A stretch of DNA of 64,000 nucleotides, taken from positions 4,576,001-4,640,000 of the forward strand of contig OY776510.1 in the NCBI GenBank assembly GCA_963675665.1, written 5' to 3'. How positions within the stretch are numbered: position 1 is the stretch's first letter; the number at the start of each line of letters is the position of its first letter. The DNA is from Spirochaetia bacterium. GTDB lineage: Bacteria; Spirochaetota; Spirochaetia; UBA9216. Positions 529 to 41,427 of the stretch are shown here, one piece after another. The notes beneath the pieces were generated by a model. It was not told the origin of the DNA, searched no databases, and saw only the letters and a list, made by a program, of their open reading frames with translations. Position numbers and translations under genes: made by a program.

Positions 529-751
529 CTCCTTTAAAAAATTCTTGCCATGGAAGGCAAGTTGCGGAGAATGAAGTTTGATGAGCTATGCTTGTCAAAC
601 TTCAAAATAATAAAATAGCATGGAAGATATTTTATTATTCCTCCTGTAAAAAATTCTTGCCATGGAAGGCAAGTTTCGGAGAATGAAGTTTGATGAGCCT
701 TGCTTGTCAAACTTCAAAATAACGAAAACACTCGGAAGTGTTTTCGTTATT
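529..751 (-). repeat. Tandem pair of 112-bp three-hairpin units in the ABC gene leader
   Basis: 529-639 and 641-751 are near-identical; each holds three inverted repeats and ends (minus sense) in an SD-like AGGAG. Confidence 0.9.
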
Positions 752-775
752 AGTGTCCTACCTCACTAATACACT
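752..775. promoter_or_regulatory. Palindromic operator, YtrA/GntR-like
   Basis: AGTGTCCTA-N6-TAATACACT immediately downstream of the -10 box; resembles TGTAYTA-N6-TARTACA operators of YtrA-subfamily regulators of ABC operons. Confidence 0.55.
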
Positions 776-778
776 GAT

Positions 779-807
779 AAGATAACGCACGTGCAACAAT
801 ATGTCAA
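779..807 (-). promoter_or_regulatory. Sigma70 promoter of ABC operon
   Basis: TTGACA (807-802) - 17 bp - TATCTT (784-779). Confidence 0.75.
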
Positions 808-932
808 GAGAAATAGAGAAAAAATATGATTTTTTGCGAATTTTAAGAAAATTGAGTGTTGTATTAGGTAGGCGAATAAAATTTGACAGTCAATGGCTAT
901 TGCTAAAAATTAATTTAAATTGGCATATTTAT

Positions 933-1264
933 TTAAAAAAGAAACTCCGCATACTGGACATCGTTAAAAGGCTCCAATCCAAGACCGCCGATTATATACA
1001 GATATCCATTGTTTTCTACGCTTGAGAAGCCCCACCTGCCGGTTGAGAAACTCTTTGTATTAATCCAAGCACCTAAACTTCCATCCATATTAATCTTCGC
1101 AAACCGGACATCATCTAATGGTCCGTCAGTACTGTTATAACCACCTAAAATATAAATATGTCCATTAAATACATTACCTGTTAGCAAATATCTGCCTTTA
1201 GTAAAATTTGTAGTCGCCATCCATGTTTCCAAAGTGCCGTCCGGTTGAATTACTGCATACTGAA
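933..1264 (-). pseudogene. 3' fragment of IS66-disrupted Kelch-repeat lipoprotein gene
   Basis: Two Kelch-like blades (NGHIYILGG, NGYLYIIGG); joins in frame with the 5' part across the IS (VLND|VQYAVIQPDGTLETW). Confidence 0.9.
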
Positions 1265-1349
1265 CATCATTTGTAAGCGGTAATTCTTACCTTCTTGCTA
1301 AAATATAAAAATGTATTATCCTCCGGAATTATTAACCAGGAGGAAATAA

Positions 1350-1649
1350 ATGCGAAAGGTAATAAATAATTGGGAAGAAGTCATTGAGCAACAACAGCAA
1401 AGCGGTAAGACGATTTTAGAGTTCTGTAAAGAGATCGGGATTCATCCAAACACGTTTTATAAAAACAGGAAAATTATTGGCAATCAGGAAGCACCCGGAA
1501 GTTCTTCAGTTGTTGAAATAAAACCAAATGGAATCTTCTCAGCCGCCCCAATAGTTATAAAAACCAAAAAGTTCTTAATATCAATAACTGCCGGATTTGA
1601 TGAAGCCGGGCTGAAATCAGTTCTTAAAGTAATCGGGGAGCTCGAATGA
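1350..1649 (+). CDS. tnpA: IS66 accessory protein TnpA (HTH)
   Basis: W..VIEQQQQSGKTILEFCKEIGIHPNTFY pattern; SD GGAGG; overlaps tnpB start. Confidence 0.85.
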   Translation: MRKVINNWEEVIEQQQQSGKTILEFCKEIGIHPNTFYKNRKIIGNQEAPGSSSVVEIKPNGIFSAAPIVIKTKKFLISITAGFDEAGLKSVLKVIGELE

Positions 1650-1990
1650 TTATCGATTACTCAGAATACCGTTACTTCGTCAGACCCGGGAAAACTGATT
1701 TACGAAAAGGTGTGAACGGTCTGAGCCTGCAGATTCAGAATATAATGCAGAACGACCCGTTCTCAAAAAGTCTGTTTCTATTCTGCAACGGCAAAAGAAA
1801 GCTGCTTAAAATCGTTTACTGGGATCGGAACGGATTCTGTCTTTGGCAGAAAAGACTTGAAAAGAATAAGTTCCCCTGGCCGGAAACGGAAGAAGACGCG
1901 AGGGAGATAAAGTTCGAAGAGTTGAAGATGCTGCTTGATGGAATAGATTTCTTTAAAGCGCATAAGCAATTAAATTATTCCCGCGTTTAG
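1646..1990 (+). CDS. tnpB: IS66 accessory protein TnpB
   Basis: TDLRKGVNGL, LFLFCN, KIVYWDRNGFCLWQKRLE, FPWP motifs. Confidence 0.95.
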   Translation: MIIDYSEYRYFVRPGKTDLRKGVNGLSLQIQNIMQNDPFSKSLFLFCNGKRKLLKIVYWDRNGFCLWQKRLEKNKFPWPETEEDAREIKFEELKMLLDGIDFFKAHKQLNYSRV

Positions 1991-2028
1991 GGCTTCACAC
2001 TCGAATTTAACCGTGGTAAAATTCTTAT

Positions 2029-3582
2029 GTGAGTACTGAAGCCTTGCTTAACGAAATTGCTCAACTCAAACAAACAGTCCAAAATCAGGATAATCAGATT
2101 ACCGAATTGAAAGAACTGGTACACCTCCTGCAGACTCTTCACTTCGGAACAAAATCTGAGAAACTTACCAGTGAAGATAAGAAGCAGGCGTCCCTTTTCA
2201 ACGAAGCAGAAGATTCCGCATTTGAGCAGCAGGATGAAATAGAATCAGAAACCCTTGAAGTAAAAGCCCACACAAAAACAGTTCGAAAGAACTCGGGAAG
2301 AAAAGCGCTTTCTGAAGACCTGCCTCGCGAGATTGTTGAATACGATATCGATGAAGAAGATAAAACCTGTGCCTGTGGTACCGAGAAGGTTTGTATAGGT
2401 GAAGATGTATCTGAACGACTCTGCATCGTTCCTGCGAAAGTAGTCGTCAGACGTGAGATAAAGAAAAAATATGTCTGCCGAAATTGTGAAGGAACAACTG
2501 ATGATTCATCCGGAGTACAGACAGCAGAAGGGATTAAACACCTCATTTCCGGAAGTATTGCCGATGAAAGCCTGCTTGCATGGATTATAAATGAGAAGTT
2601 TGAATATGCGCTGCCGTTTTATCGACAGAGTAAGAGGTTGAATGCGATAGGTGCGGATATTCCACGTGCAACACTGAGCACATTGGCAATTAAATGCGCT
2701 GAAAGATGCAAGCCGCTATATGAGCTGCTTAAAGATAATATTAAAAACGGTCCAGTAATCAATGCTGATGAAACCCGGGTGCAGGTTTTGAAAGAAAAAG
2801 GTCGTAAAGCACAGGATAAATCCTGGATGTGGGTATTTCTTGGTGGAGAGACTGATAAAAAATCTGTTGTGTTTCAGTATGAAACAAGCCGCTCTCATAA
2901 AGTTCCGTATGATTTCCTGCAAGAATATTCCGGCTGGCTGCAGACTGATGATTATGAGGCTTATCACACTGCATTGAAAAAACTAAGCGATGAAGGAAAT
3001 AAATCTATTCGTCATGTTTTGTGCTGGGCTCATGCCCGTAGATATTTCTACAAGTATTGGGAGCTGTCTAAATCTCCGGATGCAAAACAGATACTCGAAT
3101 TGATTAAGAAACTTTTTGAGCTTGAAGATTTAAGAGCTGATTTTTCTAAGAAAGGGTTTCAAAAACAACGGACGAACAGGGCTTCTCCGATTCTGAAATC
3201 CTTATTTGAATTACTGACACAATATGCAGCGGCAACGCCGCCTACACTTGCCTTCGGGAAAGCTATTGCCTATACGCTGGATAATTGGAAGCAGTTAAAC
3301 TTGTATTTGGAAGACCCGCTGCTTACGTCGTCTAACAACATTGCCGAAAACGCAATCCGGCCTTTTGTGATCGGCAGGAAGAATTGGTTGTTTTCCGATA
3401 CAGAACACGGCGCCGAATCTTCAGCAATTTTGTACAGCCTTGTTGAATCAGCTAAAATGCAGAACCTCTCGGTCTATGATTATTTCTACTACGTTTTCAG
3501 ACAGCTTCCAAATTGCAAAACACCGGCTGATTATGAAGCACTGCTTCCGTTCAACCTGACTCCTGGGCTGATTAAGGCATAG
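2029..3582 (+). CDS. tnpC: IS66 DDE transposase TnpC
   Basis: FGTKSEK, GRKALSEDLPR, zinc finger, INADET, LQTDDY, CWAHARR, NNIAENAIRP..GRKNWLF, LLPFN. Confidence 0.97.
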   Translation: MSTEALLNEIAQLKQTVQNQDNQITELKELVHLLQTLHFGTKSEKLTSEDKKQASLFNEAEDSAFEQQDEIESETLEVKAHTKTVRKNSGRKALSEDLPREIVEYDIDEEDKTCACGTEKVCIGEDVSERLCIVPAKVVVRREIKKKYVCRNCEGTTDDSSGVQTAEGIKHLISGSIADESLLAWIINEKFEYALPFYRQSKRLNAIGADIPRATLSTLAIKCAERCKPLYELLKDNIKNGPVINADETRVQVLKEKGRKAQDKSWMWVFLGGETDKKSVVFQYETSRSHKVPYDFLQEYSGWLQTDDYEAYHTALKKLSDEGNKSIRHVLCWAHARRYFYKYWELSKSPDAKQILELIKKLFELEDLRADFSKKGFQKQRTNRASPILKSLFELLTQYAAATPPTLAFGKAIAYTLDNWKQLNLYLEDPLLTSSNNIAENAIRPFVIGRKNWLFSDTEHGAESSAILYSLVESAKMQNLSVYDYFYYVFRQLPNCKTPADYEALLPFNLTPGLIKA

Positions 3583-3601
3583 GGTAAGAATTACCGCTTA
3601 C

Positions 3602-5321
3602 CATCATTTAGTACGTCTGTATCAGACTGTCCTCCAAGAATATACATGTATCCATTATTAACAATAGTTGAAAACCCTCTTCTTTCTGAATTTAAACTTG
3701 TTGTATAGCTCCATAAACCAAGAGACCCGTCCGGGTTAATCTTTACATATTGGACATCATTGAGGTAATTCAGGGCTTCATCCATACCTCCCATTATATA
3801 TAGGTAACCATTATAGGTGACACAACTAAAAACACTCCTTGCTGTTGTAAAGCCTGTGGTATAGTTCCATGAGTCCAGACTACCATCGGTATTTATCTTT
3901 GCATACAAAGCCTCACTCAGCTGATTAGTACCGTCATTACCGCCGAGTACATACAGATATCCATTGAAAATAATACTGGTATGACCCACTCTTGGTGATG
4001 GTAACTGTGTAGTAAAATTCCATGAATTCAAATTGCTGTCAGTATTTATCTTTGCATAGAGAACATCACTCTGAGCAGTAGTATTATCAGTCCCTCCAAG
4101 TACATATAAATATCCGTTGCATACTACACTTGAACAGCTCCATCTTGGCCCTGTAAGACTCGTAGTTTCACTCCAATCCCCAATCTCAGGACCTCTTGCC
4201 CCCTTACAGACTTCCGCATCCTCTGAGTCTACACTCTCCCCGGAAATACCGTTTGCTCTGGCTGTAAGGATGATAATCCCGTCGGAATAATCTTCTGTAT
4301 CTATGGTGTAGCTGAATGGGGCTTCAGCATCTGTTCCCAGATAGATGCCGTTTGCATAAAACTCTACATCTGTAATAATATCGGTACCGTTTGAGGCGAA
4401 GGTATTTATGTTTGTTACTCCGTCAATCCGGGTATCAGACAGCGGTTCGATAATGCTGATTGTCATTTCCTTTTCTTCAGCCTTAACTTTTTCAGTAGTT
4501 TCCCAGTGTACTTGTATATTCAGACTATAAACAACCTGTGTTTCAGCTTCATCAACAACAACCTGATAAGATGAAGATTCACTCAGATATGTCTGGGTAT
4601 CACCATCAACACTTCCGTGCACATGCTGCTGCTGACTTTCAAAACCTCCGACTGTATATTGCAGGTCGAAAAATACACCGATGCAGTCATACACGGCTTC
4701 GTCAGTTTCAACACTCATACCGTAAATACCGTTGCTGTTTAAAAACCATGAGACGAAATACATGAAGGGATAGTATGAATCACCGCCTGAATAATATTCC
4801 TGGAATTTACTCAATAAGCCGGGAGCAAACAGGCTTCCGACATAGGGCGAAAAATGATTAACTTCTGCTGTAAGAGTTGCATTATCAGAACCGGGGTCGG
4901 CAGCAAATGGAATATCCTTCCAGCTTCCGTCAGCAAAGGTAAATACGGCGTGTTCCTGATTCTCAACCAGCGGCACTGAAGAAGGTATACTTATAGTTAC
5001 CGGAACATTGAATGTAAGCCCTTCAGGACCGAAATCAGCACCTCCAGTAAAAGGCGTAACTCCGTGGTCCCGGCTGATACCTGCAGAATTTGTATAGGTT
5101 TTAATGGTTATCTCCGTCGGTACATCAAGAGCCCCGGCAGGAATGGTAACCGATGCTCCTCTCGGGTCTGTAACTGTCCCGCCTTCGGGACCGATTGTCT
5201 CCGAATAAACCGGCATATAACCTAATGCATCGCTTAAAAAGAATTGCCTGCATGAATAAAAGGCTGTTCCGATAAGAAGTGCCGTAAAAATGAAAATAAC
5301 AATTCGTTTTTTCTTTTTCAT
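3602..5321 (-). pseudogene. 5' part of ZU5-like/Ig-like/Kelch-repeat lipoprotein gene disrupted by IS66
   Basis: Likely start ATG 5321 (MKKKKRIVIF...FYSC lipobox, SD GGAG); TIGPEGGTV..VTIPAGAL ZU5-like region, VEFYANG..APFSY Ig-like domain, four Kelch-like blades. Confidence 0.85.
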
Positions 5322-5338
5322 GGTACTAACACTCCATA

Positions 5339-5917
5339 TTAAAAATCGATTTCTACTCTCAATCCCGGAGATATACCCATATAGGCCATGTCGTCGTAGA
5401 AGATCATCAGAAGCTCGCCGAAGGCAGATGCACTCAGCCACGGCAGGAATCGCCACCCAACCCCAACTCCCGGTGCAATAAGAGGTTTAATAACAGTACT
5501 GTCGGATACACCCGGGTAAACAGCCTGATAATTGAATATATTTACAGCAGCACCTGCATTTGCTTCTACGTAGAGGCACAATGGTGAATTAAAATTTGTT
5601 TTATATGTGAGAATACCTGCAACAGGAACGGACAAAATTAAACACTGATATGCTGCCTCAATACCGGTAGTCTGGATATTACATCCGGAAAAAACACCAA
5701 AACCGATTATTCCCCAGTCAAAGGCTAAATTATAACTGAATGAAACAGCCGGTGTAATCGCAATATTGAATGCCGGTGATAAATCCCCAAAAGGTATAGT
5801 CGCTCCGCAGCCTACACTTGTCGAAAAGTAATTGTTCTGCTGTCTTGCATCTTCACCAGCATAAACTGATGTTATTATGCAGAGAACAAGAAATATACCG
5901 ACAATAATTTTTTTCAT
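5339..5917 (-). CDS. Putative outer-membrane beta-barrel protein
   Basis: Signal peptide, alternating beta-strand pattern, C-terminal Phe (LRVEIDF). Confidence 0.7.
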   Translation of the reverse strand: MKKIIVGIFLVLCIITSVYAGEDARQQNNYFSTSVGCGATIPFGDLSPAFNIAITPAVSFSYNLAFDWGIIGFGVFSGCNIQTTGIEAAYQCLILSVPVAGILTYKTNFNSPLCLYVEANAGAAVNIFNYQAVYPGVSDSTVIKPLIAPGVGVGWRFLPWLSASAFGELLMIFYDDMAYMGISPGLRVEIDF

Positions 5918-6131
5918 GAACCCGATATTAATTATATATCATAAAGACATGATCAACAATGAATTAAAGTTACCTGCAAAGACTTTGATAATTATTTAAT
6001 TAAGATAGAAACAAATCCCGCACTACTGCCTTGCAGGAACCATAACCTTACATATAACAGTGTCTAATGGTATGCGAATCGATAAGGAGGATATTTACAT
6101 TACACTATCTGCGGTTCTTTGCCATATATAG

Positions 6132-7043
6132 TCACTCAACAGCACCTGCGTTTTTTAAAAGTTCAATAATTTCGTAAAGACCTTTGTGCAACGCTGACTT
6201 TAGGGGTGTAACTCCAAGACCATTGTAAATGTTTACATCAGCGCCTGCTCCGATAAGCAGCCGGACAATATCTATATAGTCTCTTTGTACAGCTTCAGTC
6301 AAAGGGGAGTTCCCATATGCGTCACGAAGATTTACATCAGCTCCATTCTCAATAAGCAGTCTTGATATATCAGCATTTCCGGAGAACACTGCTTCCATTA
6401 GTACCGTGGTTCCATTCCAATGTTGAAAGTTTACGTTTGCTCCCTTATTGATTAAGATCGCAACAATGTTCAATTGACCGGCAGTAACGGCATAATTTAA
6501 TAAAGTAAAATCGTTTTCATCAACAGAATTTATCTCAATGCTTTCTTCCGGTAATTTTGATAATTCTTCAGTGTTTCCGGTTCTTATTAACTCAATCAAT
6601 CTGTTTTCATATACAGCGCCGGCATCCTTCAGAATAGCTTCAATATCTAAAAAACTATTTTTTACAGCATATATAAGCGCTGATTTTTTTTTATTATCAG
6701 TCATATTAACATCTGCTCCAGCCTGGATAAGTACTTGAGCAATTTCCACCTGCCCATATTTTGCTGCTGTTATCAAAGCTGTTTCCCCGAAATTATTTTC
6801 TTTGTCTATATCAGCGCCTGCGCTTATCAAAATTTCGACAATATCGCCATAACCGTACATGGAAGCATACATTAAGGATGTATCCCCGTATTCATCAACA
6901 GAATCAACATCTATACCATCAGAAACAAGGATTCTAACTGCAGGAATATCATTAGCTAAAACAGAATATAGAAGCTTATCGAATGTAGAAGAATAGACTG
7001 CATAACAGTTGAAGAAAATTAATAAGACGAATAATTTTCTCAT
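6132..7043 (-). CDS. Secreted ankyrin-repeat protein
   Basis: Multiple G.T.L..A...G...IV..LI..GADVN repeats after a signal peptide. Confidence 0.92.
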   Translation of the reverse strand: MRKLFVLLIFFNCYAVYSSTFDKLLYSVLANDIPAVRILVSDGIDVDSVDEYGDTSLMYASMYGYGDIVEILISAGADIDKENNFGETALITAAKYGQVEIAQVLIQAGADVNMTDNKKKSALIYAVKNSFLDIEAILKDAGAVYENRLIELIRTGNTEELSKLPEESIEINSVDENDFTLLNYAVTAGQLNIVAILINKGANVNFQHWNGTTVLMEAVFSGNADISRLLIENGADVNLRDAYGNSPLTEAVQRDYIDIVRLLIGAGADVNIYNGLGVTPLKSALHKGLYEIIELLKNAGAVE

Positions 7044-7278
7044 AACAATGACTACGATTATATCACAGTTTAATTAAATATAGGGTTTTAAACGTTACCA
7101 GTTCAGCCGACATCTGTCCGTGAATAACTATTGAATTCTTTGACTATGAAGGCATGATTCCCTCCTGTTGCCTAAAACCATAACCTTACAAACAACATTA
7201 TCTACCGGTATGGATATGGACAAACCGAATATCACCCATGTGCCGATTTTTACAAACTGAAAGGCTCCTAAATAGCCT

Positions 7279-7424: not shown

Positions 7425-7440
7425 GAATAATCCGAACGAT

Positions 7441-8163: not shown

Positions 8164-8170
8164 TTACCGC

Positions 8171-14472: not shown

Positions 14473-15216
14473 ATGGTCATTGATGAAAAAATTTTTGAAT
14501 CATTTCGTGATGAAGCTTCAGATTATAATATTTCCAGGCTTACCATAGGGCTTGGATATACAGCCTCAGAACTTGAAGACGGAAGGACCGGTATTGCCTA
14601 TACCTGGCTGAACAGGAAAGAAGGTTGTTCCGTTATAAAGGGCCCTGACTCTTTTGAAGGCAAAAGTGCCTCTGGTCTGCTTGAAAAGATTTTTTCGCCA
14701 GTTCCGCTTGAGCGCACCCTTGCCGTTGCCACGGCAAATGCACTGAACCATAAAACAGCCGCTGCCTTTAAAGATGACGAAGGATCTCTTGTTGCCGACA
14801 TCAACTCCGGTAAGGGCAGCAGAATAGCGATGGTCGGTTTTTTTGGACCGGTTGTCGAACTTCTCAGAGCAAACGGTTCCGAAACAGTTGTTTACGATAT
14901 CGGCAAAAACAGCGGTAACCCGGACGAGTTCTTCCCTTTTCTTGAGCACAAAGCTGATGCACTGATTCTGACTTCAACAAGTCTTCTTAACGGAAGCATG
15001 GAAGACGTTCTGGCCCGTTTAGCAGGAAGACGGATCCCTGTTGTTCTTCTGGGTCCCACAACCATTATGAAGCCCGAACTTTACAGCCATCTGCCGGTCA
15101 CTATTCTTGCAGGAACGGTACCGGTAAACTCCGAAAAAGTTGTTCAGGCTATAAGAAACGGGAAAGGAACTCCCGTAATACAGAAGTTTGCAAGAAAAGT
15201 ATATACTGAAATTTAA
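14473..15216 (+). CDS. DUF364/Rossmann-like putative metal-binding protein
   Basis: IGLGYT, ATANAL, IAMVGFFGP, LILTSTSLLNGS, LLGPTT. Confidence 0.75.
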   Translation: MVIDEKIFESFRDEASDYNISRLTIGLGYTASELEDGRTGIAYTWLNRKEGCSVIKGPDSFEGKSASGLLEKIFSPVPLERTLAVATANALNHKTAAAFKDDEGSLVADINSGKGSRIAMVGFFGPVVELLRANGSETVVYDIGKNSGNPDEFFPFLEHKADALILTSTSLLNGSMEDVLARLAGRRIPVVLLGPTTIMKPELYSHLPVTILAGTVPVNSEKVVQAIRNGKGTPVIQKFARKVYTEI

Positions 15217-15225
15217 CTGATTTTT

Positions 15226-15265
15226 AAATAAAAAGGCCGCATCTTGCGAAGCGGCCTTTTTATTT
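15226..15265. terminator. Bidirectional terminator
   Basis: AAATAAAAAGGCCGC-loop-GCGGCCTTTTTATTT between convergent genes. Confidence 0.9.
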
Positions 15266-15277
15266 ATTTGCTATTTC

Positions 15278-17242
15278 TTATTTTGCGGCTTCAGCAAGCT
15301 GCTCAACGCTTACTACAGACCCGTATTTTTCCTTGAGAGCGAGAAGGTTTTTCTTTTGCTCTGCGTAAATCTGGAAAATTCTTTCAGGAACATGCTCATC
15401 TTTCCTGAATGCTTCATCCTGCAGATCAAGCCTTGAAATAATATTATCAAGGTAAAAGGAGAACTGCTTGTCATAAAGTTCTTTCGGGTAAGGTTTGTTA
15501 ATACCGTCAAAAAGTTTTTTAAGATCTTCATACAGAGGAATAAACCCTATCGGTGTTTCAATTGCTTCAACATCGCCGTTAGCCCTGAGTTCAAGCCATC
15601 CGAGCCATACCTTTACGTCTTTCTTTTCACCGAGAAGCTTCTTGCCCTCGCCGCCTCTGGCGCCTTCGGTAAGAAAGTAGTTAAGACCGGCCATAATCGG
15701 TTTAACTTTAATCTTGCCCGAGTTGTAAAACTTGAACTGCGCGTCCATGTAGTCACCGAGCGCACCTGGAATAAAGGGAGCATTCGCCCACGGCTGCCTG
15801 TTCACGCCCGTAGCCCCGACTTCTGTTGCGGTAGCAGCAGAAACAATTGAGGCGCCTATTGCAACACCTTCATCCATGGTTTTAGCTACCCATACCGGAG
15901 GCATAGTGTCGGAATCACGTCCGGAGTATGTTACAACCTGAACATGAACGCCTTCTGCGCTTTCAGCAGCTTCCTTATTATAGTTGTCGATAGACTCGCA
16001 AAGAAGGGTACATCTTGAATTGGGATGGGAAATCAGAATTTCTTTTCCGTTTGCATCTTTCTTGCCGGGCCACCATTCGCCCTGAAAGTTTACACCCTTT
16101 GAAGGTTCCGGTTCGCCGTCTCCGGTCCATCTCGGTTTATCGTTTTCGTCGATACAGACATTTGAAAAGATGACTGTTGTACCTTCTTTTCTGAGCCTCT
16201 TCATCAGGTACGGATCACCCTCTTCATTAACATCGGCTACAATACCGAATATTCCGCATTCGGGGTTGATTCCGCGTACAGTACCTGTAGATTCATCAAT
16301 CCACATCTGTGCAAGGTCGTCTCCGATAAAGTCTGTTCCGACCATTGCCGTAGTTGTTTTACCGCAGCCAGAAGGAGCGGCGCCGGCAAAAAAGGTTTTA
16401 CGTCCGCCGGGGCCGGTCATGCCGGTAAGAAACATATGCTCTGAGAGCTCTTCTTCAACCTTGTAGTATGTTGCACGGTCTACAGCAAACCTGTGGTTTC
16501 CCTTCTTCAGAAGGAGCGTGTTACCGGCATAGGTACAGAAGGTTGAATAACATGTCTGCCAGCTTCTGTCCATGTAAATTCTGGCCTTGGGAACATCTTC
16601 GGAACGTCCTGTTCCCTGGCTGTGAACATTGGTAAAGAATGTTCCGCATCTTTCAGCTTCAGCGTCAAAATCCCTGAAAACATTTCTGTAAAGAAGATCT
16701 CCCGATGATTGGACATAGGTTGAAGAGGTAATCATAAGCGCCGGAATAGATGCCTGGGCGCCTACAGGACCTCTGTTAAGAAACGCAACATACATTGTAA
16801 GGCCTTTCATGATCCCTTTCATATTTTCTTTTATGTAAGCATAAGAATCGGCCCTGAGCTCTTTCTTGGCAATTGAGCTTATGTCTTCATCCTCATTAAC
16901 AATATAAAAAGTCTGCTTTACAAGACGTCCCTGATCTTCGGGAAGATCATAATGGATCGTATGGTTCTTGATTGCAAGATTTCTTTCCTCGCCGGTTTCA
17001 AGACTTTTCTGCTTAACATAGGCAGCATCTTCCCTGCTGTCCGAGATGATGAATACATCATCCGGTTCACACATTGCAATAGAGTTTGCTATTTTAAGCA
17101 ATGCGTCTTCATTTTTAATAGTGTTAATCTTTGCAAGATTTGATTCATCAAGTCTGGTTTTAAAAAGTGCTCTGGCTTCAGCTATATCAGCAACACCTCC
17201 GACATCCGCAAGAATGTCTACACCCTTTTTCATTTCCAACAT
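15278..17242 (-). CDS. pckG: Phosphoenolpyruvate carboxykinase (GTP)
   Basis: YAGNTLLLKK, EHM, AAPSGCGKT, IGDDLA, INPECGIFG, HPNSR. Confidence 0.93.
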   Translation of the reverse strand: MLEMKKGVDILADVGGVADIAEARALFKTRLDESNLAKINTIKNEDALLKIANSIAMCEPDDVFIISDSREDAAYVKQKSLETGEERNLAIKNHTIHYDLPEDQGRLVKQTFYIVNEDEDISSIAKKELRADSYAYIKENMKGIMKGLTMYVAFLNRGPVGAQASIPALMITSSTYVQSSGDLLYRNVFRDFDAEAERCGTFFTNVHSQGTGRSEDVPKARIYMDRSWQTCYSTFCTYAGNTLLLKKGNHRFAVDRATYYKVEEELSEHMFLTGMTGPGGRKTFFAGAAPSGCGKTTTAMVGTDFIGDDLAQMWIDESTGTVRGINPECGIFGIVADVNEEGDPYLMKRLRKEGTTVIFSNVCIDENDKPRWTGDGEPEPSKGVNFQGEWWPGKKDANGKEILISHPNSRCTLLCESIDNYNKEAAESAEGVHVQVVTYSGRDSDTMPPVWVAKTMDEGVAIGASIVSAATATEVGATGVNRQPWANAPFIPGALGDYMDAQFKFYNSGKIKVKPIMAGLNYFLTEGARGGEGKKLLGEKKDVKVWLGWLELRANGDVEAIETPIGFIPLYEDLKKLFDGINKPYPKELYDKQFSFYLDNIISRLDLQDEAFRKDEHVPERIFQIYAEQKKNLLALKEKYGSVVSVEQLAEAAK

Positions 17243-31369: not shown

Positions 31370-31448
31370 TTCCGGCAGCCTTTCCTCGAAGGAAAAAAAT
31401 CTGATTATACCGGGCAGAAACATGCCTGGTATTTGTTATAATGCTAAA

Positions 31449-31655
31449 GACTTCTCCCAAGCATTCTTATGCTTAAGCGTCGAAGTCGAAGACTTCTCCC
31501 AAGCATTCTTATGCTTACGCGTCGAAGTCGAAGACTTCTCCCAAGCATTCTTATGCTTACGCGTCGAAGTCGAAGACTTCTCCCAAGCATTCTTATGCTT
31601 ACGCGTCGAAGTCGAAGACTTCTCCCAAGCATTCTTATGCTTATGCGTCGAAGTC
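31449..31655. repeat. Tandem repeat, ~4.9 x 42 bp, internally palindromic
   Basis: Unit GACTTCTCCCAAGCATTCTTATGCTTAHGCGTCGAAGTCGAA at 31449, 31491, 31533, 31575, 31617; no spacers. Confidence 0.97.
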
Positions 31656-31817
31656 TTTGGGTCTTCTTTCTCTTCTGCTGCACTTTTCACATACTGCAAC
31701 ATTTCTCAATTTACCGTTCTGGAAAATAGCTCTCATCTTGACGTCTCCGCCACATGAGGAACATACATGTTTATGTGCAGCTGAGCCCATTCGCGCATTC
31801 TTACTTACCTGTGCCAT
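31641..31817 (-). CDS. Small basic zinc-ribbon protein, 58 aa (missed by ORF track)
   Basis: MAQVSKNARMGSAAHKHVCSSCGGDVKMRAIFQNGKLRNVAVCEKCSRRERRPKDFDA; SD AAGGAG; own promoter. Confidence 0.85.
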   Translation of the reverse strand: MAQVSKNARMGSAAHKHVCSSCGGDVKMRAIFQNGKLRNVAVCEKCSRRERRPKDFDA

Positions 31818-32783: not shown

Positions 32784-32816
32784 ATTAAAAGTAACTCCTA
32801 TAAAAACATGGTAATC

Positions 32817-32875: not shown

Positions 32876-32902
32876 TGTCGTCATCAGCAAGCCCGGGAAG
32901 AC

Positions 32903-33837: not shown

Positions 33838-33864
33838 TTTCGAACCCTTGTTTAAATCGAATTA

Positions 33865-34878: not shown

Positions 34879-35044
34879 ACCCTACTCCTCCGGTTATTAT
34901 ATGGGATATTCCTTTTCATAGCAAGAGAATATCGATAAAAACATTTAGCAAATAATCATTGACTGCATTGACTGTACGTGATAATTTTAAGTGGTCGAAT
35001 TGAAGTAAGTATCTAACGAAACAACAAATAAAGCAGGAAATCAT

Positions 35045-35818: not shown

Positions 35819-35825
35819 AAAGCTG

Positions 35826-36815: not shown

Positions 36816-36872
36816 TCCGGCAAAAGGTGAAATAACCGATTATCTTCAGACATATGGGTATAAAAGATTTTA

Positions 36873-36985
36873 ATAATTGGAAATTTCAATTTCCAATTAT
36901 CCATAAAACATTAATCCATGAAGTATTTGCGTCAGCAAATACTTCATAAGGTACAGGTGAAATAACCAATTTCACCTGTACCTTA
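36873..36985. repeat. Cluster of three perfect hairpins upstream of purF
   Basis: 12-bp stem 36873-36900, 13-bp stem 36918-36947, 17-bp stem 36947-36985. Confidence 0.8.
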
Positions 36986-37020
36986 CTTTACAAGAACGCC
37001 GCGTTTTGATAATTTTTCAT

Positions 37021-38403
37021 GTGGACGAATCAAACGACAATCTTAAACATCATTGCGGAGTAGCGGGTTTTTATTCCGCAGAACCGTCGAATCTTCCTGA
37101 AAAACTGTTTTACAGTCTTTTCTCACTTCAGCACCGAGGCCAGGAGAGCGCCGGAATATCTTATCGCGAAAAAGGGAAAACCGTTACCTACAAGGATCTC
37201 GGCATGGTATCAACGGTTTTATCAAGATATCTTACGATTCAACGTATGGCAAACGCCGGAATCGGGCATGTCCGTTATTCAACCCGCGGCGGAAACAGGC
37301 TTGAAAACGCTCAGCCCATAGCTGTTACCTGTAACAAGGGTGATATTGCCCTTGCGCACAACGGAAATATATCGAACGCGGCAAAACTTCATGAAGAGCT
37401 GACCGAGGCCGGCTCGATTTTTCAATCGAGCTCCGATACCGAGCTGATACTGCATATGATATCGCTCAGCCGTAAACCAGATTTTTTCGAGGCATTCAGG
37501 GAAACTCTGGAGAGGCTTGAAGGCGCATTCAGCATGGTTCTGATACACGACGAAAGCCTGATTGTTGTACGTGACCCGCACGGATTCAGACCGCTTTATA
37601 TAGGAACAGCAGACGGCATAACAGCTGCAGCTTCTGAAACATGCGCACTTGAAACGCTTAATATCACTGATTACCGCCAGGTTGAACCCGGCGAAATAAT
37701 AGTCATAGACTCCGAAGGACAGCGAAGCACCTTTCTGCCTGCTTCGGGCAGAATAAGCCAGTGTATTTTTGAACTAATCTATTTTGCCCGGCCTGATTCC
37801 AGGGTTTTTGACGAATCAGTACACGGCACCAGGAAAAGAATGGGCGCTGCGCTTTGGGAATGTGATCCCGTTGAAGGCGATATAGTCATTCCGGTGCCTG
37901 ATTCCGGTAATAACGCTGCTATCGGGTACGCAAAAGCCTCCGGCATTCCCTTTGATCACGGCCTGACCAGAAATCACTATGCCGGTCGATCGTTTATAAT
38001 GCCGACGACGGCTCAGCGCGAACTTGCCGTCAGAATGAAACTTCATCCCATACGCGAAACAATAGCCGGAAAAAAAATAATACTGGTAGACGACTCCCTT
38101 GTAAGAGGGACAACCAGCAGGATACTGGTCAAAATGCTCAAGGATGCCGGGGCGGCGGAAGTACATCTGAGACTTTCTTCTCCGGAACTGAAATGGCCCT
38201 GTTTTTTCGGAATCGACATTCCGACGAGAGAAGAACTTATTTCCAACAGCAAAACACCCGAGCAGATAGCTGAATATATAGGAGCCGATTCTGTAATGTT
38301 TCTACCTTCAGAGCAGCTAAAAAAATGCGTAAAAACTCCCGGTGACTACTGTTATGCATGTTTTTGCGGGGATTATCCTTATGACAGGCTTTCATCCGTG
38401 TAA
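37021..38403 (+). CDS. purF: Amidophosphoribosyltransferase
   Basis: Propeptide then CG, LQHRGQESAG, GHVRYST, CIFELIYFARPDS, VDDSLVRG; GTG 37021 preferred over TTG 37006. Confidence 0.95.
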   Translation: MDESNDNLKHHCGVAGFYSAEPSNLPEKLFYSLFSLQHRGQESAGISYREKGKTVTYKDLGMVSTVLSRYLTIQRMANAGIGHVRYSTRGGNRLENAQPIAVTCNKGDIALAHNGNISNAAKLHEELTEAGSIFQSSSDTELILHMISLSRKPDFFEAFRETLERLEGAFSMVLIHDESLIVVRDPHGFRPLYIGTADGITAAASETCALETLNITDYRQVEPGEIIVIDSEGQRSTFLPASGRISQCIFELIYFARPDSRVFDESVHGTRKRMGAALWECDPVEGDIVIPVPDSGNNAAIGYAKASGIPFDHGLTRNHYAGRSFIMPTTAQRELAVRMKLHPIRETIAGKKIILVDDSLVRGTTSRILVKMLKDAGAAEVHLRLSSPELKWPCFFGIDIPTREELISNSKTPEQIAEYIGADSVMFLPSEQLKKCVKTPGDYCYACFCGDYPYDRLSSV

Positions 38404-38452
38404 TCCTGTCATTCAGCAACTGCCCTCCATGGCAGAGATTTTCTAAAAGGAG
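38381..38452 (+). repeat. Two-hairpin member of the TCC-loop cassette family
   Basis: ATGACAGG..CATCCGTG..CCTGTCAT then CTGCC-CTCCAT-GGCAG then SD AAGGAG. Confidence 0.7.
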
Positions 38453-38459
38453 AAAAATA

Positions 38460-39416
38460 ATGGATATCAAATCATACTCTGAAGCAGGGGTCGATATTGA
38501 AAAAGGCGACCGCTTTGCTTCATATATATCATCGATAAAATCCCCTGCTGTTTCGAACACCATAGGCGGGTTTGCCGGAGGTGTTGAGCTGGATATGAGC
38601 GGTTTTAAGAAACCGATTCTGTTGTCGGCAACAGACGGCGTCGGCACCAAACTTATTGTCGCCCAGAAACTGAAAAAATATGATACTTTAGGCATTGATC
38701 TTACCGCTATGTGCGTAAACGACCTTGCCGTCTGCGGCGCATGGCCGCTGAGCTTTCTTGACTATATAGGCTGCGGCAGCCTTAATGAAAACATAATGAA
38801 GGAAGTAATTAAAGGAATCGTCGACGGCTGTGAACAGGCTGAATGCATCCTGGCGGGCGGCGAAACCGCCGAGATGCCCGACATGTACGAAGGAGACGAC
38901 TTTGATCTGGCGGGCTTCTGCGTCGGAATTGTTGAAAAATCCGAAATGCTTCCGTTCACCGACAGGATAAAATCCGGAGATATCATTCTGGGCCTGCCGT
39001 CCTCAGGAATTCATTCAAACGGTCTGTCGCTTGCCCGCAAGGTTATTCCCGATACCGACAAGGCGTTGATGAACATGCTGCTTACACCCACAATTATTTA
39101 CGTCAGGGCCCTTAAAAGCCTGTTGTCAACCGGAAAAATACTCTCGGCGGCACATATTACCGGAGGCGGTCTTGAGAGCAACCTGAAACGGGTCCTTCCC
39201 GGCAGTCTTGAACCCGAGTTCAATTACAGCTGGCGCGTTCCGGAAATTTTTGATGTAATCAGAAAAAAAGGCGGTATAGATGATGCCGAAATGCGAAAAG
39301 TCTTCAATATGGGTATCGGAATTGCGATGATAGTACACCCTGAAGATGTTGACGCTGTTCTGTCACAGGCTGCTGTTTCAGAAATTAATATCTTTGAAGC
39401 AGGAAGGCTTTCTTAA
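38460..39416 (+). CDS. purM: AIR synthetase
   Basis: YSEAGVDI, DGVGTK, AMCVND, GGETAEMP, SSGIHSNG, HITGGG. Confidence 0.97.
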   Translation: MDIKSYSEAGVDIEKGDRFASYISSIKSPAVSNTIGGFAGGVELDMSGFKKPILLSATDGVGTKLIVAQKLKKYDTLGIDLTAMCVNDLAVCGAWPLSFLDYIGCGSLNENIMKEVIKGIVDGCEQAECILAGGETAEMPDMYEGDDFDLAGFCVGIVEKSEMLPFTDRIKSGDIILGLPSSGIHSNGLSLARKVIPDTDKALMNMLLTPTIIYVRALKSLLSTGKILSAAHITGGGLESNLKRVLPGSLEPEFNYSWRVPEIFDVIRKKGGIDDAEMRKVFNMGIGIAMIVHPEDVDAVLSQAAVSEINIFEAGRLS

Positions 39417-40000
39417 TGGCCAGACTTGCGGTTCTTGCCTCGGGAAGCGGTTCCAACTTTGAAGCAATAGCGGAAAAGATCTCCGGTTCAGAACATGAGA
39501 TTTGCTGCCTTGTCTGTGATAAAAAAGACGCGTACGCATTTAAAAGAGCTGAAAGATTCGGTATTAAATCACATTTTGTATCATATCCCGGACGGAAACG
39601 AGAAGATACCGAAAAAGAGATAACTGAAATCCTTGAAGCTGCCGGGACAGATCTTGTTGCCCTTGCCGGCTTTATGCGGCTTCTTACCCCGCAGCTTATT
39701 GATCATTTTCCGGGAAAAATTATCAACATTCACCCGTCACTGCTGCCCAAATACCCCGGAAAACACGGCATTTTAGACAGTTACAACTCCGAAGACACAG
39801 AACTGGGCATCACAATTCACAGGGTTGATTACGGTCTTGACACTGGGCCGATAATTATGCAAAAGTCTTTTAAAAGATGCGGAAAGGAAAGCATTGAGGA
39901 AATAGAATCAATGATTCACCAGCTTGAGCATCAAAGCTATCCTGATGTATTGCTGGAAATCCTTGGCGAAATTGATAATTTTCCTGATAGTTATAATTAG
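39416..40000 (+). CDS. purN: GAR transformylase
   Basis: ASGSGSN, LAGFMRLL, NIHPSLLP, LDTGPII. Confidence 0.96.
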   Translation: MARLAVLASGSGSNFEAIAEKISGSEHEICCLVCDKKDAYAFKRAERFGIKSHFVSYPGRKREDTEKEITEILEAAGTDLVALAGFMRLLTPQLIDHFPGKIINIHPSLLPKYPGKHGILDSYNSEDTELGITIHRVDYGLDTGPIIMQKSFKRCGKESIEEIESMIHQLEHQSYPDVLLEILGEIDNFPDSYN

Positions 40001-40083
40001 CAGCCGCCAGGTTACTTGGAAAGCTCATTTAGCAAATATAAAATTTTTAAATATTATAATATTTTCATCACTGGAGGATTTTT

Positions 40084-41340
40084 TTGAAAGTTCTTATACT
40101 TGGATCAGGAGCCAGGGAACATGCCATCACCTGGAAATATTCAAAGAGTAAACGGATAACAGGTTTATATATTGCTCCCGGTAATGCCGGAACCGATGAA
40201 TTGGGAGTTAACCTGCCTGACGTTAATCCTGAAAATTCTGAACAGGTCATCAATGCCTGCACAAAATATAATATTTCCCACGTCTTTGTCGGCCCCGAAG
40301 CGCCGCTAGCCGCCGGCATAGTTGATGAATTGAATAAAGCCGGCATCCCTGCAATAGGGCCCCATAAAGCTGCTGCAAGGCTTGAGGGAAGCAAGATTTT
40401 CTCCAAGAATTTTATGAATAAGCATAACATCCCCACAGCAGAAGCCGTAATTTTTGATAAATCCGAGAAATTTGAAAAACACATCAGAAACCAGTCGGGT
40501 CCTGTTGTAATAAAAAAAGACGGCCTGGCCGCGGGTAAGGGCGTTCTTGTATCGGAAGATACTGAAGAACTTGCAGCTTTCGGAAAAGAAATTCTTAAAG
40601 ACGACAGCCTTCTCGTGGAAAAATGCCTTCAGGGCTATGAAGTGTCCATTTTCACTCTTACGGACGGTAAAAATTATAAACTGCTTCCTGTATGCGCTGA
40701 TTTCAAACGCGCCGGAGAAGGCGATACCGGTTTGAATACCGGAGGGATGGGCGCCATCTGCCCGGTCCCCTTTGTAAGCTCTTCAATACTTAACGGAATC
40801 GAAAACAAAATTGTAAAACCGACTTTTGCAGGAATGGAAAAAGATAAACTGAGCTTTATCGGTGTTCTCTATTTCGGAATAATGATGACTGTTGAAGGCC
40901 CGATGCTTCTTGAATATAATGTCCGCTTCGGAGATCCTGAAGCCCAGGTACTGATACCGCTGATAGACTCGGACTTCGGCAATGTTACCGAAGCAATGCT
41001 TAATCAGAACCTTGATGAATACAACCCCAGGGTATCGAACAATTCAGCCCTCGGCGTTGTTGTTGCGGCTGCAGGGTACCCTGCAGGTTATAAAAAAGGT
41101 ATTCCCGTAAAGCCCATCCCCTCCTACCCTGAAAAGGATGCATTAATCTTTCATGCTTCGACCATGGAAGATGAAAACGGAAGACTGCTTACAAACGGAG
41201 GAAGATGTTTTACCTGCGTAGGAATAGGCTCGAACAGCCTGAAAGCAAATGCAAGAGCTTACGAGGCCGTCAAGGGAATTAATTTTGAAGGAGCCTGGTA
41301 CAGGCGGGATATCGGTAAGAAATTCTTTACTAATGAGTAA
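40084..41340 (+). CDS. purD: Phosphoribosylamine--glycine ligase
   Basis: GSGAREHA, VGPEAPL, LEGSK, GLAAGKGV, NTGGMGA, EYNVRFGDPE. Confidence 0.97.
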   Translation: MKVLILGSGAREHAITWKYSKSKRITGLYIAPGNAGTDELGVNLPDVNPENSEQVINACTKYNISHVFVGPEAPLAAGIVDELNKAGIPAIGPHKAAARLEGSKIFSKNFMNKHNIPTAEAVIFDKSEKFEKHIRNQSGPVVIKKDGLAAGKGVLVSEDTEELAAFGKEILKDDSLLVEKCLQGYEVSIFTLTDGKNYKLLPVCADFKRAGEGDTGLNTGGMGAICPVPFVSSSILNGIENKIVKPTFAGMEKDKLSFIGVLYFGIMMTVEGPMLLEYNVRFGDPEAQVLIPLIDSDFGNVTEAMLNQNLDEYNPRVSNNSALGVVVAAAGYPAGYKKGIPVKPIPSYPEKDALIFHASTMEDENGRLLTNGGRCFTCVGIGSNSLKANARAYEAVKGINFEGAWYRRDIGKKFFTNE

Positions 41341-41427
41341 AAACAAAGCAGCATCCGTGCTGCTTTGTTTTTCTGAAGTTTGCTCTGCAAACTTCACCTA
41401 CACGGCTTGCCGTCCATGGCAATGGAG
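41339..41427 (+). repeat. Three-hairpin member of the TCC-loop cassette family
   Basis: 15-bp stem/TCCG loop; TGAAGTTTGC-TCT-GCAAACTTCA; TTGCC-GTCCAT-GGCAA; SD GGAG. Confidence 0.85.

Follow-up and report, generated by a model that had tools for sequence, protein, structure and literature searches.

The cassettes found at four sites of the 64,000-nucleotide stretch of Spirochaetia DNA analysed here (the window) were confirmed to belong to one repeat family, and this family was shown to consist of old, non-coding insertion elements that are dispersed and have a length of 109 nt in the median. The element is wedged exactly between the Shine-Dalgarno (SD) sequence AGGAG and the stretch of spacer and ATG at the start of a gene; it always points the way the gene does, and its terminal TTTTTATAGGAG leaves that gene with an SD at the normal distance of 5-7 nt. 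No target sequence is duplicated on insertion, units can stand head-to-tail in arrays, and at orthologous sites of relatives the element is either present or precisely absent. A new finding is that the same genome holds, at SDs, near-identical copies of an IS110-family insertion sequence (IS) whose ends and point of insertion coincide with those of the cassette. The reading favoured here, with a probability of roughly 0.65, is that the cassettes belong, as old and non-autonomous MITE-like elements, to an IS110 lineage that targets SDs; their insertion would leave the target unduplicated and restore the SD.

All four sites were seen where the original prediction had placed them, and were assigned to the same family by a covariance model (CM) built from 49 genomic copies. 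Two cassettes stand head-to-tail on the minus strand, the proximal copy at 529-640 (112 nt; CM E 9.4e-28) and the distal copy at 641-752 (112 nt; E 2.5e-23), with a period of 112 nt and 85% identity. The proximal copy runs in the order GAATAATAAAAT, hairpin A (loop UUCCAU), hairpin B (GAAGTTTG..CAAACTTC), hairpin C (CTTGCC-TTCCAT-GGCAAG) and AATTTTTTAAAGGAG, and the ATG of an ABC-ATPase (522-520; ORF 1-522, minus strand; PF00005) lies 6 nt past its end. The 3' AGGAG of the distal copy (645-641) directly adjoins the first G of the proximal one, and no SD-like sequence was found on the 5' side of the distal copy. On the plus strand, a partial cassette precedes purM at 38381-38452 (CM E 1.3e-05, with the B region deleted in the alignment). 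It comprises an A-like hairpin (38381-38412, loop CATCCGTG), hairpin C (38420-38435, CTGCC-CTCCAT-GGCAG), a U-rich tail and the SD AGGAG (38448-38452), followed by an ATG at 38460 that opens an ORF matching AIRS/AIRS_C. The lack of hairpin B originally described for this site was borne out, but its A-like hairpin has to be corrected to partly coding, because the purF stop codon (38401-38403) falls inside it. The fourth site, also on the plus strand, is a full cassette (41339-41427; CM E 1.6e-17) that fills the gap between purD (stop 41338-41340) and purE (ATG 41435; ORF matching AIRC); hairpin A lies at 41339-41373 (loop TCCG), B at 41375-41396 and C at 41407-41422, and the shortened tail carries GGAG (41424-41427).

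In the host's own 5.15-Mb genome, an nhmmer profile gave 98 matches, merged into 87 loci, and a CM search gave 98 matches too, numbers that chance comes nowhere near explaining. Cassettes were found in 10 of the 11 genomes of the host's family, while in other families matches were seen in 1/30 only, as one weak match. The unit reads GAATGATAAAA, hairpin A, hairpin B, hairpin C, TTTTTATAGGAG. At 80 of the 87 loci a co-oriented ORF starts directly behind the cassette (at least 70 aa, start between -45 and +105 nt of the cassette 3' end), in agreement with the single polarity reported for the window copies and not with random orientation; five of the seven other loci adjoin the IS, behind which a gene follows in turn. 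In 46/87 loci the ORF on the upstream side has the same orientation and its end lies no more than 60 nt away, so that the cassette fills an intercistronic gap there. Seven head-to-tail arrays were found, each of 2-5 units. Median pairwise identity among the 49 cassettes is 56%, and the closest non-tandem pair reaches 92%. Mycobacterial MIRUs are likewise intercistronic, in operon orientation and in tandem arrays, but small ORFs overlapping the stop and start codons on either side are described for them; in the cassette, an open frame of any kind occurs in only 19/49 units, and unit lengths do not keep to multiples of three (residue classes 13/19/17).

In relatives, the orthologous site is often found precisely empty, reading ...TAAGGAG|N7 ATG. 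The metK site is filled in two genomes (G000 and G008) and empty in three (G001, G003 and G004), where it reads GCAATCTAAGGAG|CAAAATTATG or a close variant; the purD-purE junction is empty in 3/5 relatives and the btpA site in 2/3. No target duplication is made, since the 5' flank resembles a copy's own 3' end no more within than between copies (6 nt before ..GAG; 3.52 matches within-copy against 3.39 between-copy, p = 0.21, 23 copies). In about 10 of the 49 copies the 5' AGGAG is missing, and the region of the former stop codon and SD has given way to the unit.

The IS is 1382 nt long, and its ORF matches PF01548 and PF02371 (IS110 family); an IS with the cassette's ends and insertion point had not been mentioned in the original prediction. 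Its 15 copies are at least 99.9% identical. In every copy (15/15) the left flank ends in AGGAG, in gene orientation, and the right flank runs for 5-7 nt (6 nt in 12/15) to the ATG of an ORF 93-729 aa long; ten copies stand at ordinary SDs and five at the 3' SD of a cassette. The IS ends equal the cassette consensus over the first 11 nt (GAATGATAAAA) and the last 12 nt (TTTTTATAGGAG), and are matched with at most two mismatches by 33/49 and 34/49 cassettes, respectively; in some copies the left-end match extends for ~22 nt. Beyond the ends there is no common sequence, the nhmmer profile aligning only 17 nt (E 0.54). A genome of another family, G028, encodes a transposase 71% identical to that of the IS, and its element has the same ends and is also located at ..GAGGAG|, 6 nt upstream of an ATG. 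No cassette match was found in G028; the IS thus did not borrow its ends locally, and the ends belong to the IS lineage. The left ends of the IS and of the G028 element are predicted to fold into a two-domain RNA, of which the second domain is nearly invariant, while differences in the first coincide with those between the targets (GTTTAGGAG versus GTCGAGGAG).

We infer a MITE-like relation between cassette and IS because the first 11 nt, the last 12 nt, the AG-ended junctions and the orientation rule are the same. The cassette would be mobilised, now or formerly, by a DEDD recombinase of the IS110 lineage, and the guide would be a two-loop bridge RNA from the IS left end, reading ..TAGGAG and the A-rich spacer with ATG. 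The predicted RE-LE junction of a cassette minicircle is TTTTTATAGGAG-GAATGATAAAA, and the predicted target ..TATAGGAG-N6-ATG. Such SD-targeted insertion with SD regeneration would explain polarity, position and head-to-tail arrays, since each inserted unit recreates the target at its own 3' end and tandem arrays of one polarity would follow. The three hairpins may be maintained by selection at each locus, probably because a unit transcribed within operons and 5' UTRs needs a compact fold. On this view, hairpin A would hide the SD and AUG left over on the upstream side, hairpin C and the U-tract behind it resemble a weak terminator or a 3'-end protector, and the rebuilt SD would remain free for the downstream gene.

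Several observations count against the IS110 link, and most of them feed the view that cassette and IS are mechanistically unrelated, the cassette having spread via an unknown recombinase, gene conversion or slippage between SD-flanked units, and the IS merely having the same SD target, with ends alike through convergence or capture. The IS transposase was not found in 5/5 same-genus genomes that carry 22-71 cassettes each, although most of these are fragmented MAGs and absence is not proven, but two of the five consist of 40-50 contigs; PF01548 occurs in one of the five, in a copy just 22% identical. The identity comparison of the 49 cassettes gave no recent copies and no near-identical dispersed pairs, and since the cassettes are diverged and the IS copies are not, the present burst of this active IS has not visibly copied them. 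Cassette and IS appear alike at their ends only, with no internal homology, and simple insertion at AGGAG| does not explain the 5' boundaries of the ~10/49 copies mentioned above. We nevertheless regard an unrelated mechanism as unlikely: both ends match, over 11 and 12 nt and in the majority of copies; so do the geometry of the junctions, the orientation and the absence of a target duplication; the IS ends are identical in the cassette-free G028; and an IS110-borne MITE is documented in passages of PMC12288879.

That element is MITEPpu9, carried by the IS110-family ISPpu9 of Pseudomonas putida KT2440. As described in parts of that paper (PMC12288879), it resembles the cassette as a short non-coding module with both ends like those of an IS110-family IS, an invariant AG at both junctions, the target and orientation of its IS, occurrence both beside the IS and alone, and tandem duplicates. 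It differs in having 8 copies, an sRNA gene and a REP location, against the ~90 loci, SD sites, rebuilt SD and three covarying hairpins of the cassette, which spans a bacterial family and occurs even in genomes that gave no match to the IS. Minicircles, a prediction in the case of the cassette, are shown for MITEPpu9 (PMC12288879). For the IS itself, the closer parallel is IS900 of Mycobacterium avium subsp. paratuberculosis, whose target CATGNNNNNNTCTCCTT gives, when read on the other strand, the same orientation-specific arrangement of SD-like motif, ~6 nt (here 6) and ATG, and which lacks terminal inverted repeats of the usual kind as well as a target duplication, the lack of the latter being stated for IS110 elements (passages of PMC8141618). 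This comparison applies to the IS and not to the cassette, as the PMC8141618 passages show no high-copy non-autonomous IS900 derivative.

As had been proposed from the window copies, the stems vary in sequence but retain their pairing, the loops are retained too, and covariation is strong: 94.1% of stem cells are paired in the 49 copies versus 78.6% in shuffles and 39-50% in slid controls, and double changes occur in 22/27 pairs versus 10.9 in shuffles, with 0/500 shuffles as high. The UCC loops are conserved across copies, but the base preceding UCC varies, so that only three loop nucleotides are fixed. Pairing at 94% in diverged copies argues for a host-level or repair-level constraint, which a purely selfish element would not need.

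Covariation and conserved loops in old, diverged copies would also suit a cassette that is primarily a cis-acting regulatory RNA (a leader, attenuator or anti-SD/pseudoknot switch) selected for control of the downstream gene, its spread being secondary. The UCC loops, and a CUCC-like linker present in 19/47 copies, could pair with GGAG; hairpin C with its U-tract is terminator-like, being called so together with the tail in 4/5 units of one array; and the cassette always lies in the transcript directly upstream of the SD. The genes behind it, however, are unrelated in function and form no regulon: 67 of the 78 scanned downstream ORFs have Pfam families, mutually unrelated, among them pyrI, metK, purC/M/E, ilvB/N, hisB, metH, ABC transporters, LolA-like proteins, ferredoxins, flgK, cheX, hsp20 and others. 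Sister-species orthologues do without the cassette, two to five units may stand in tandem, and the Rfam search gave no match to a known family. With three fixed loop nucleotides, no significant co-occurrence of the anti-SD-like linker with a 5' SD (Fisher p = 0.19), and a predicted 3' SD accessibility that is unremarkable and without clear pattern (mean unpaired probability 0.43; above 0.5 in 17/49 copies), the suggested anti-SD switch or pseudoknot found no support. A primarily regulatory RNA is therefore judged distinctly improbable; from the original pair of options, a structure-conserving, REP-like, RBS-bearing element stands, and a gene-specific regulatory RNA is not supported in view of the unrelated genes and the often empty orthologous sites.

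REP/BIME elements of enterobacteria and pseudomonads are, like the cassette, high-copy extragenic palindromes in operons and targets of IS110-family elements, with proposed roles in mRNA 3'-end protection and termination; IS110-family insertion into REPs is reportedly described in a further study. A RAYT (Y1) transposase keeping the cassette as a dispersed, structure-conserving REP/REPIN-type palindrome, at which an IS110-family IS inserts as at REPs (passages of PMC12288879), is very unlikely and is contradicted by the RAYT/TnpA-Y1 search, in which PF01797 gave 0 matches in the host genome (control positive in 6/14 genomes), and by an architecture of ~110 nt, three times longer than REPs, with three hairpins, strict co-orientation with the downstream gene, an adjoining start codon, an SD of its own, and head-to-tail rather than inverted pairs. 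Just as improbable is a function of the opposite strand, where the reverse-complement hairpin loops read CAUGGA or CACGGA, up to 10 per array, and would act as A(N)GGA CsrA sites, with the arrays as a CsrB-like sponge: csrA is present, but antisense transcription would be needed, units are sense to the flanking genes and operons in 80/87 loci and lie inside co-oriented gene pairs in 46/87, the five-unit array has no promoter-like site on its opposite (plus) strand, the single one found lying outside the array, and a sponge would not be expected to occur as solitary units in front of genes unrelated to one another.

BOX elements of Streptococcus pneumoniae are also modular A-B-C repeats with stable hairpins near genes, but their boxB number varies and they have no fixed relation to an SD; they and the cassette have no sequence relation. 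IS900 inserts between an RBS and a start codon.

A polymorphism was seen at one locus carrying both elements (L134): in X3 and X6, contigs of two runs, position 4645 is joined to 6169, so that cassette and IS are skipped and the junction ..CTTATAGGAG|TTAGATATG is left. The nearest paralogue of the cassette absent there is just 89.5% identical; what underlies the polymorphism may therefore be a precise loss and not a new insertion.

The four window sites were re-read, and the sequence description in the original prediction, of hairpin cassettes placed at Shine-Dalgarno (SD) sites, was borne out. Two head-to-tail cassettes of 112 nt each lie on the minus strand (752 to 641 and 640 to 529); 6 nt after their end comes the start codon (ATG) of a gene for an ABC-ATPase (ORF 1..522, minus strand; PF00005). 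A full cassette occupies the purD-purE gap (41339-41427, plus strand), and a partial cassette without hairpin B lies 5' of purM (38381-38452, plus strand). In the purM copy the first hairpin includes the purF stop codon (38401-38403), which corrects the earlier description. A search of the window against Rfam gave no match at the gathering score, and none was found at E <=1 in L018, a locus of this genome that holds an insertion sequence (IS) and also carries a cassette.

The window lies within a single 5.15-Mb contig (43% G+C), and this genome was searched for further copies. Hairpin B, GAAGTTTG..CAAACTTC, occurs 40 times, and a profile prepared from 17 copies gave 98 matches at E <=0.01 that merged into 87 loci, seven of them head-to-tail arrays with 2, 2, 2, 5, 3, 2 and 2 units. 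A covariance model built from 49 copies gave 80 matches under strict filtering and 98 when the filters were relaxed. The alignment comprised 49 of the 51 full-length matches, two near-identical units of the five-unit array being omitted, and unit length was found to range from 82 to 157 nt, with a median of 109 nt. The consensus from this alignment follows a target ending ..AGGAG and begins GAATGATAAAA. Hairpin A, with a long A/U stem, a variable inner 4-6 bp and a (Y)UCC(A/G)U loop, is followed by UUUU, hairpin B, a pyrimidine-rich linker and hairpin C, which has a G+C-rich stem of 5-7 bp and a NUCCAU loop; the 3' end reads AAUUUUUUAUAGGAG, and 5-7 nt later comes the ATG. Some hairpin B loops hold a small palindrome, AAACTGC-N3-5-GCAGTTT, once or repeated in tandem up to three times, extending the unit to ~140-160 nt (contig positions 738775-738951, 894783-894943, 1454621-1454771 and 4930015-4930173), which amounts to a repeat nested in a repeat. 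One weak match to the covariance model in the window, at 15130-15275 (E 0.0045), is not a cassette and was assigned to an ordinary bidirectional terminator between convergent genes (ORFs 14473..15216, plus strand, and 15278..17242, minus strand), with a G+C-rich hairpin between A and T runs at 15236-15270.

The structure of the unit was examined using RNAalifold, which predicted both hairpin A and hairpin B, 18 of the 20 pairs showing compensatory changes; hairpin C was added manually before the pairing statistics were calculated. Across the 49 copies 94.1% of 1247 cells were paired, compared with 78.6% in column shuffles, and none of 500 shuffles attained any of the observed values for pairing, double changes or covariation. 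Double changes were seen in 22 of 27 pairs (10.9 in shuffles) and the covariation score was 0.350 (0.092 in shuffles), although, the copies being paralogues, such covariation numbers are not probabilities, large as the effect is. Sliding the partner by 1-3 columns as a control left 39-50% paired. The claim that stems differ while pairing and loops persist therefore held. In an alignment-free check, stem length averaged 6.0 bp when each of 30 distinct C hairpins was paired with its own arm, versus 1.7 bp when the arm came from another copy, and 22 distinct inner A stems gave 6.0 versus 1.1, the own-arm values being the best of a scan and hence favoured. Copies at ~56% identity that still pair at 94%, and that keep UCC in two loops, point to constraint at each locus, on RNA or on hairpin DNA. 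Paired double changes could also arise without selection, via templated correction inside quasi-palindromes.

At 80 of the 87 loci, a co-oriented ORF (>=70 aa) has its start in the interval from -45 to +105 nt around the unit 3' end; a few of these loci are doubtful (one is a reverse-strand match to hairpin B, a palindrome, and at one the ORF has just 72 aa). Five of the other seven loci adjoin an IS that itself precedes a gene, and two are B-only fragments. In 38 of 49 copies AGGAG is separated from the start codon by 5, 6 or 7 nt, and an SD-like remnant is present at the 5' side in 35 of 49. Upstream, a co-oriented ORF ends no more than 60 nt away at 46 loci and 61-300 nt away at a further 18, while at 23 the ORF is on the other strand. 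The upstream ORF often stops within the first dozen bases of the match, so that the unit is the whole intercistronic gap.

Next, the distribution of the cassette was considered. The covariance model gave 22-71 matches in each of five genomes of the same genus and 1-11 in four of five genomes of other genera in the family; among 30 genomes of other families of the class, one gave a lone weak match (E 2.6e-5). When 185,579 species genomes were scanned by pattern, the same A-B-C-SD-ATG architecture was detected in three spirochaete MAGs (seven loci in Spirochaeta sp., three in Spirochaetales bacterium and two, without SD, in Treponema sp.). The architecture was absent from four of the 16 scan loci, in uncultured bacterium, Clostridium, Planctomycetia and Prevotella records, and these were discarded as chance matches.

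Orthologous sites differ in presence and absence of the unit between this genome and its relatives (G001-G005 and G008). At metK the unit is present here and in G008, and G001, G003 and G004 read ..GCAATCTAAGGAG|CAAAATTATG or a near variant. At purD-purE this genome and G003 hold quite different units, G001 has just a C-like hairpin, and G004, G005 and G008 display a plain stop-SD-ATG junction. At btpA there are five units in this genome, none in G001 or G003 and a partial one in G004; conversely, units of G002 and G003 are absent at the orthologous genes here. At locus L134, contigs from two sequencing runs of close relatives (X3 and X6) join position 4645 to 6169, so that a cassette and the adjoining IS (1523 nt) are gone, leaving ..AATCTTATAGGAG|TTAGATATGGCAGAC with 8-9 letters fitting both sides. 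This joint sets the boundaries: the unit starts at the G of GAATGA directly after AGGAG, and ends with AGGAG. The nearest paralogue of the missing cassette is 89.5% identical and, there being no close one, precise loss is as likely as gain. At lgt, the orthologous cassettes of this genome and G001 differ almost wholly in their inner stems, which points to fast compensatory evolution or to cassette exchange at a fixed site. The cassette is very probably an insertion-type dispersed repeat.

Five cassettes directly precede one identical sequence, a 1382-nt element of the IS110 family whose ORF encodes a 370-aa protein with DEDD_Tnp_IS110 and Transposase_20 domains (PF01548, PF02371). This genome has 15 copies at >=99.9% identity, one at contig positions 242916-244297 (L109, 1288-2669) and 14 elsewhere, and no diverged paralogue. 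The left flank ends in AGGAG in 15 of 15 copies (TAGGAG in 13), and on the right every copy is followed by 5-7 nt (6 nt in 12 of 15) and then the ATG of a co-oriented ORF of 93-729 aa; ten copies occupy ordinary SDs, and the remaining five the SD at the 3' end of a cassette. The IS starts GAATGATAAAAAGTCTTCATGA and finishes GACTTTTTATAGGAG and, because it ends in TATAGGAG, the gene behind it retains an SD. A transposase with 71% identity is encoded in G028, a genome from another family with no cassette matches, where the IS has the same ends and sits at ..CAGAGGAG|GAATGATAAAAAG ... GACTTTTTATAGGAG|TTAACGATG, 5' of a gene. At L134 4665-5995 (contig 4928664-4929994), contigs from two further runs (X1 and X5) join the IS ends with 1329 nt skipped and six other letters between, a joint that may reflect either an IS with an internal deletion or a similar-looking locus. 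The minimal element that this joint suggested, hairpin A alone between IS ends, was rejected, as the composed pattern was not found in the assembled genome.

The cassette and the IS were then compared. The cassette consensus starts GAATGATAAAA and finishes TTTTTATAGGAG; the first, which is the IS left end, is matched with no more than two mismatches by 33 of 49 cassettes and the second, the IS right end, by 34 of 49, while some copies, c2291893 among them, agree with the left end over ~22 nt. The two arms of hairpin A have their counterparts in the IS inverted repeats ATAAAAAGTC and GACTTTTTAT. Cassettes and IS copies (15 of 15) alike follow ..AGGAG| and end ..AGGAG| 5-7 nt before a co-oriented ATG, with an invariant AG at both junctions, and empty orthologous sites confirm the AGGAG junction. 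No target-site duplication was detected in 23 single copies, where flank-end similarity was 3.52 of 6 within a copy compared with 3.39 in shuffles (p = 0.21). From these sequence comparisons, the cassette would be a passenger element of high copy number that conserves its structure, regenerates the SD and has ends and geometry of the IS110 type, a reading to which we give a probability of roughly two in three.

The best-surviving rival is that the two elements are mechanistically unrelated and merely share a target, which the likeness of their ends does not favour. Outside those ends no homology between cassette and IS was found, and the IS lineage was found in one of 11 family genomes (this one) versus ten of 11 for cassettes, a negative that MAG fragmentation weakens. 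The IS was not found in five sister genomes, with the same MAG caveat, and had zero depth in the contigs of X3. Cassettes have a median pairwise identity of 56% (92% for the best non-tandem pair), and the 15 IS copies are virtually identical; the cassettes are old. Given diverged cassettes, near-identical IS copies and sisters in which the IS was not found, the present IS is a recent arrival that has not visibly amplified cassettes, and the link must therefore lie with earlier members of its lineage, or is non-causal as the rival holds. In addition, about ten of the 49 copies have no 5' AGGAG, the unit replacing the former stop and SD; in such copies its own TGA or TAA can terminate the upstream gene, as at purD in G003.

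Under the passenger reading, a unit ending in the target motif would insert at ..AGGAG| in a single orientation, with a putative target of ..TAGGAG | N6 ATG, also ..TTATAGGAG-N6-ATG, and a donor of TTTTTATAGGAG|GAATGATAAAA. Such insertion would place the unit directly 5' of start codons with the polarity of the gene, and would leave an SD-like remnant 5' while giving the gene a fresh SD. The inserted unit would also be a perfect target for the next insertion, generating head-to-tail arrays.

The left end of the IS (212 nt), which no Rfam model matched in L018, is predicted to fold into a two-domain RNA with GTTTAGGAG in the first loop, a candidate bridge RNA. The left ends of the two ISs, from this genome and G028, align as a fold of two domains, with a long stem closing it. 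The second domain, nearly invariant, includes AUAGGAGAAUGG, close to the donor junction ATAGGAG-GAATGA, while the first domain has GUUUAGGAG versus GUCGAGGAG and CAUUUUUAC versus CAUAUCUAU. These differences fall where recognition of the left target, and of the A-rich spacer with the ATG, would be expected, which, for two sequences compared, is suggestive and no more. In the available text of two sources, a double-loop bridge RNA lies upstream of IS110 recombinases (bioRxiv 10.64898/2026.10.21.760802; PMC12288879), and the match of the predicted fold to it is likewise suggestive.

Among known elements, MITEPpu9 is described in the accessible part of its source as a passenger of the IS110-family ISPpu9, with AG junctions, tandem copies and minicircles of its own (PMC12288879). 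The cassette resembles it in having ends like those of a co-resident IS110-family IS (33/49 and 34/49), and in sharing with that IS the target, the orientation and AG at both junctions without target duplication; it differs in co-occurrence with an autonomous IS (one of 11 genomes, compared with ten of 11 for cassettes, subject to MAG fragmentation). The IS900 target CATGNNNNNNTCTCCTT is an SD, 6 nt and an ATG on the other strand, and for IS110 elements no target duplication is stated in the portion of the source available (PMC8141618). The cassette differs from a classical MITE, being without target duplication and having just a subterminal 6-7-nt inverted repeat, ATAAAA(A) / (T)TTTTAT. In the parts of the literature available, neither this spirochaete repeat nor an IS110 passenger that regenerates an SD was found described.

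Other explanations fared less well. A cis-regulatory RNA of the regulon type was considered; however, 67 of 78 downstream ORFs scanned had at least one Pfam match, the families were unrelated and there is therefore no regulon, and orthologous sites vary in presence and absence of the unit. The original prediction also raised a REP element with a RAYT gene. PF01797 had no match in this genome (96% complete, one contig), the control search being positive in 6 of 14 genomes, and the unit is ~110 nt with three hairpins rather than a 20-40-nt palindrome; moreover, REP/REPIN elements are expected in inverted pairs, whereas the cassette arrays are exclusively head-to-tail. A MIRU-like repeat with a small in-frame ORF through the unit was dismissed, as any open frame is present in just 19 of 49 copies and lengths modulo 3 are distributed 13/19/17. 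The cassette family is real and beyond chance, and is not a regulon signal, not REP/RAYT and not in Rfam.

The role of the hairpins in RNA was explored by folding predictions. Hairpin A extends over GGAAUGAU, so that part of the leftover SD and the AUG would be buried, and hairpin C with its U-rich tail was called terminator-like in four of five array units. Partition-function calculations gave a mean unpaired value of 0.34 for the 5' SD (35 copies) and 0.43 for the 3' SD (49 copies), with no clear sequestration or exposure. Of 34 copies having a 5' GGAG, 16 carried CUCC-like words between B and C, as did 3 of the 13 lacking it (Fisher p = 0.19, with a few linkers parsed wrongly). An anti-SD switch, as first proposed, thus found support in neither calculation, and the proposed CsrA sites require the opposite strand, while the units lie in gene orientation. 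For these reasons commitment is limited to the following: the unit is likely transcribed within mRNAs, with selection for a compact fold in which the rebuilt SD is presented.

A more ambitious reading, which we regard as unlikely, makes the cassette more than selfish DNA: a portable module for translation initiation, which an RNA-guided IS110 recombinase reading SD plus ATG would have spread and which the host then kept at ~90 genes, with the hairpins setting translation, termination or mRNA stability in operons. The three hairpins with their invariant UCC(A/G) loops would then shield the rebuilt SD, keep the old one silent and bind a factor; alternatively, the loops would pair with the GGA of the SD. 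If so, the differing lgt cassettes would represent integron-like exchange at a fixed recombination site.

If the IS110 link is true, the cassette would be a high-copy, family-wide passenger of a bridge-RNA recombinase whose natural target is the translation start region, and would show a route to insertion beside ~90 genes without silencing, owing to the replacement SD carried. It would also account for the regulon-like pattern without a regulatory assumption. The natural target/donor pair, together with two diverged bridge-RNA candidates whose first loop varies with the target, makes a directly testable case. Genome annotation should mask the family or include a model of it, lest its members be taken for riboswitch-like leaders.

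Several minor observations were made alongside. A partial cassette (hairpin C and an SD-like tail) is present ~70 nt upstream of the start of flgK, and the single csrA gene is ~4 kb from flgK (contig 3853309-3853467 and 3857123-3857193). In the window, a tandem 42-nt unit, AAGACTTCTCCCAAGCATTCTTATGCTTA(A/C)GCGTCGAAGTCG, is repeated about five times at 31447-31656 with 96-100% identity and contains a short palindrome, AAGCAT..ATGCTT. Finally, a 28-nt motif recurs every 153-156 nt at 984-1167 and 3630-4119, and is probably a repeated protein domain in adjacent genes.
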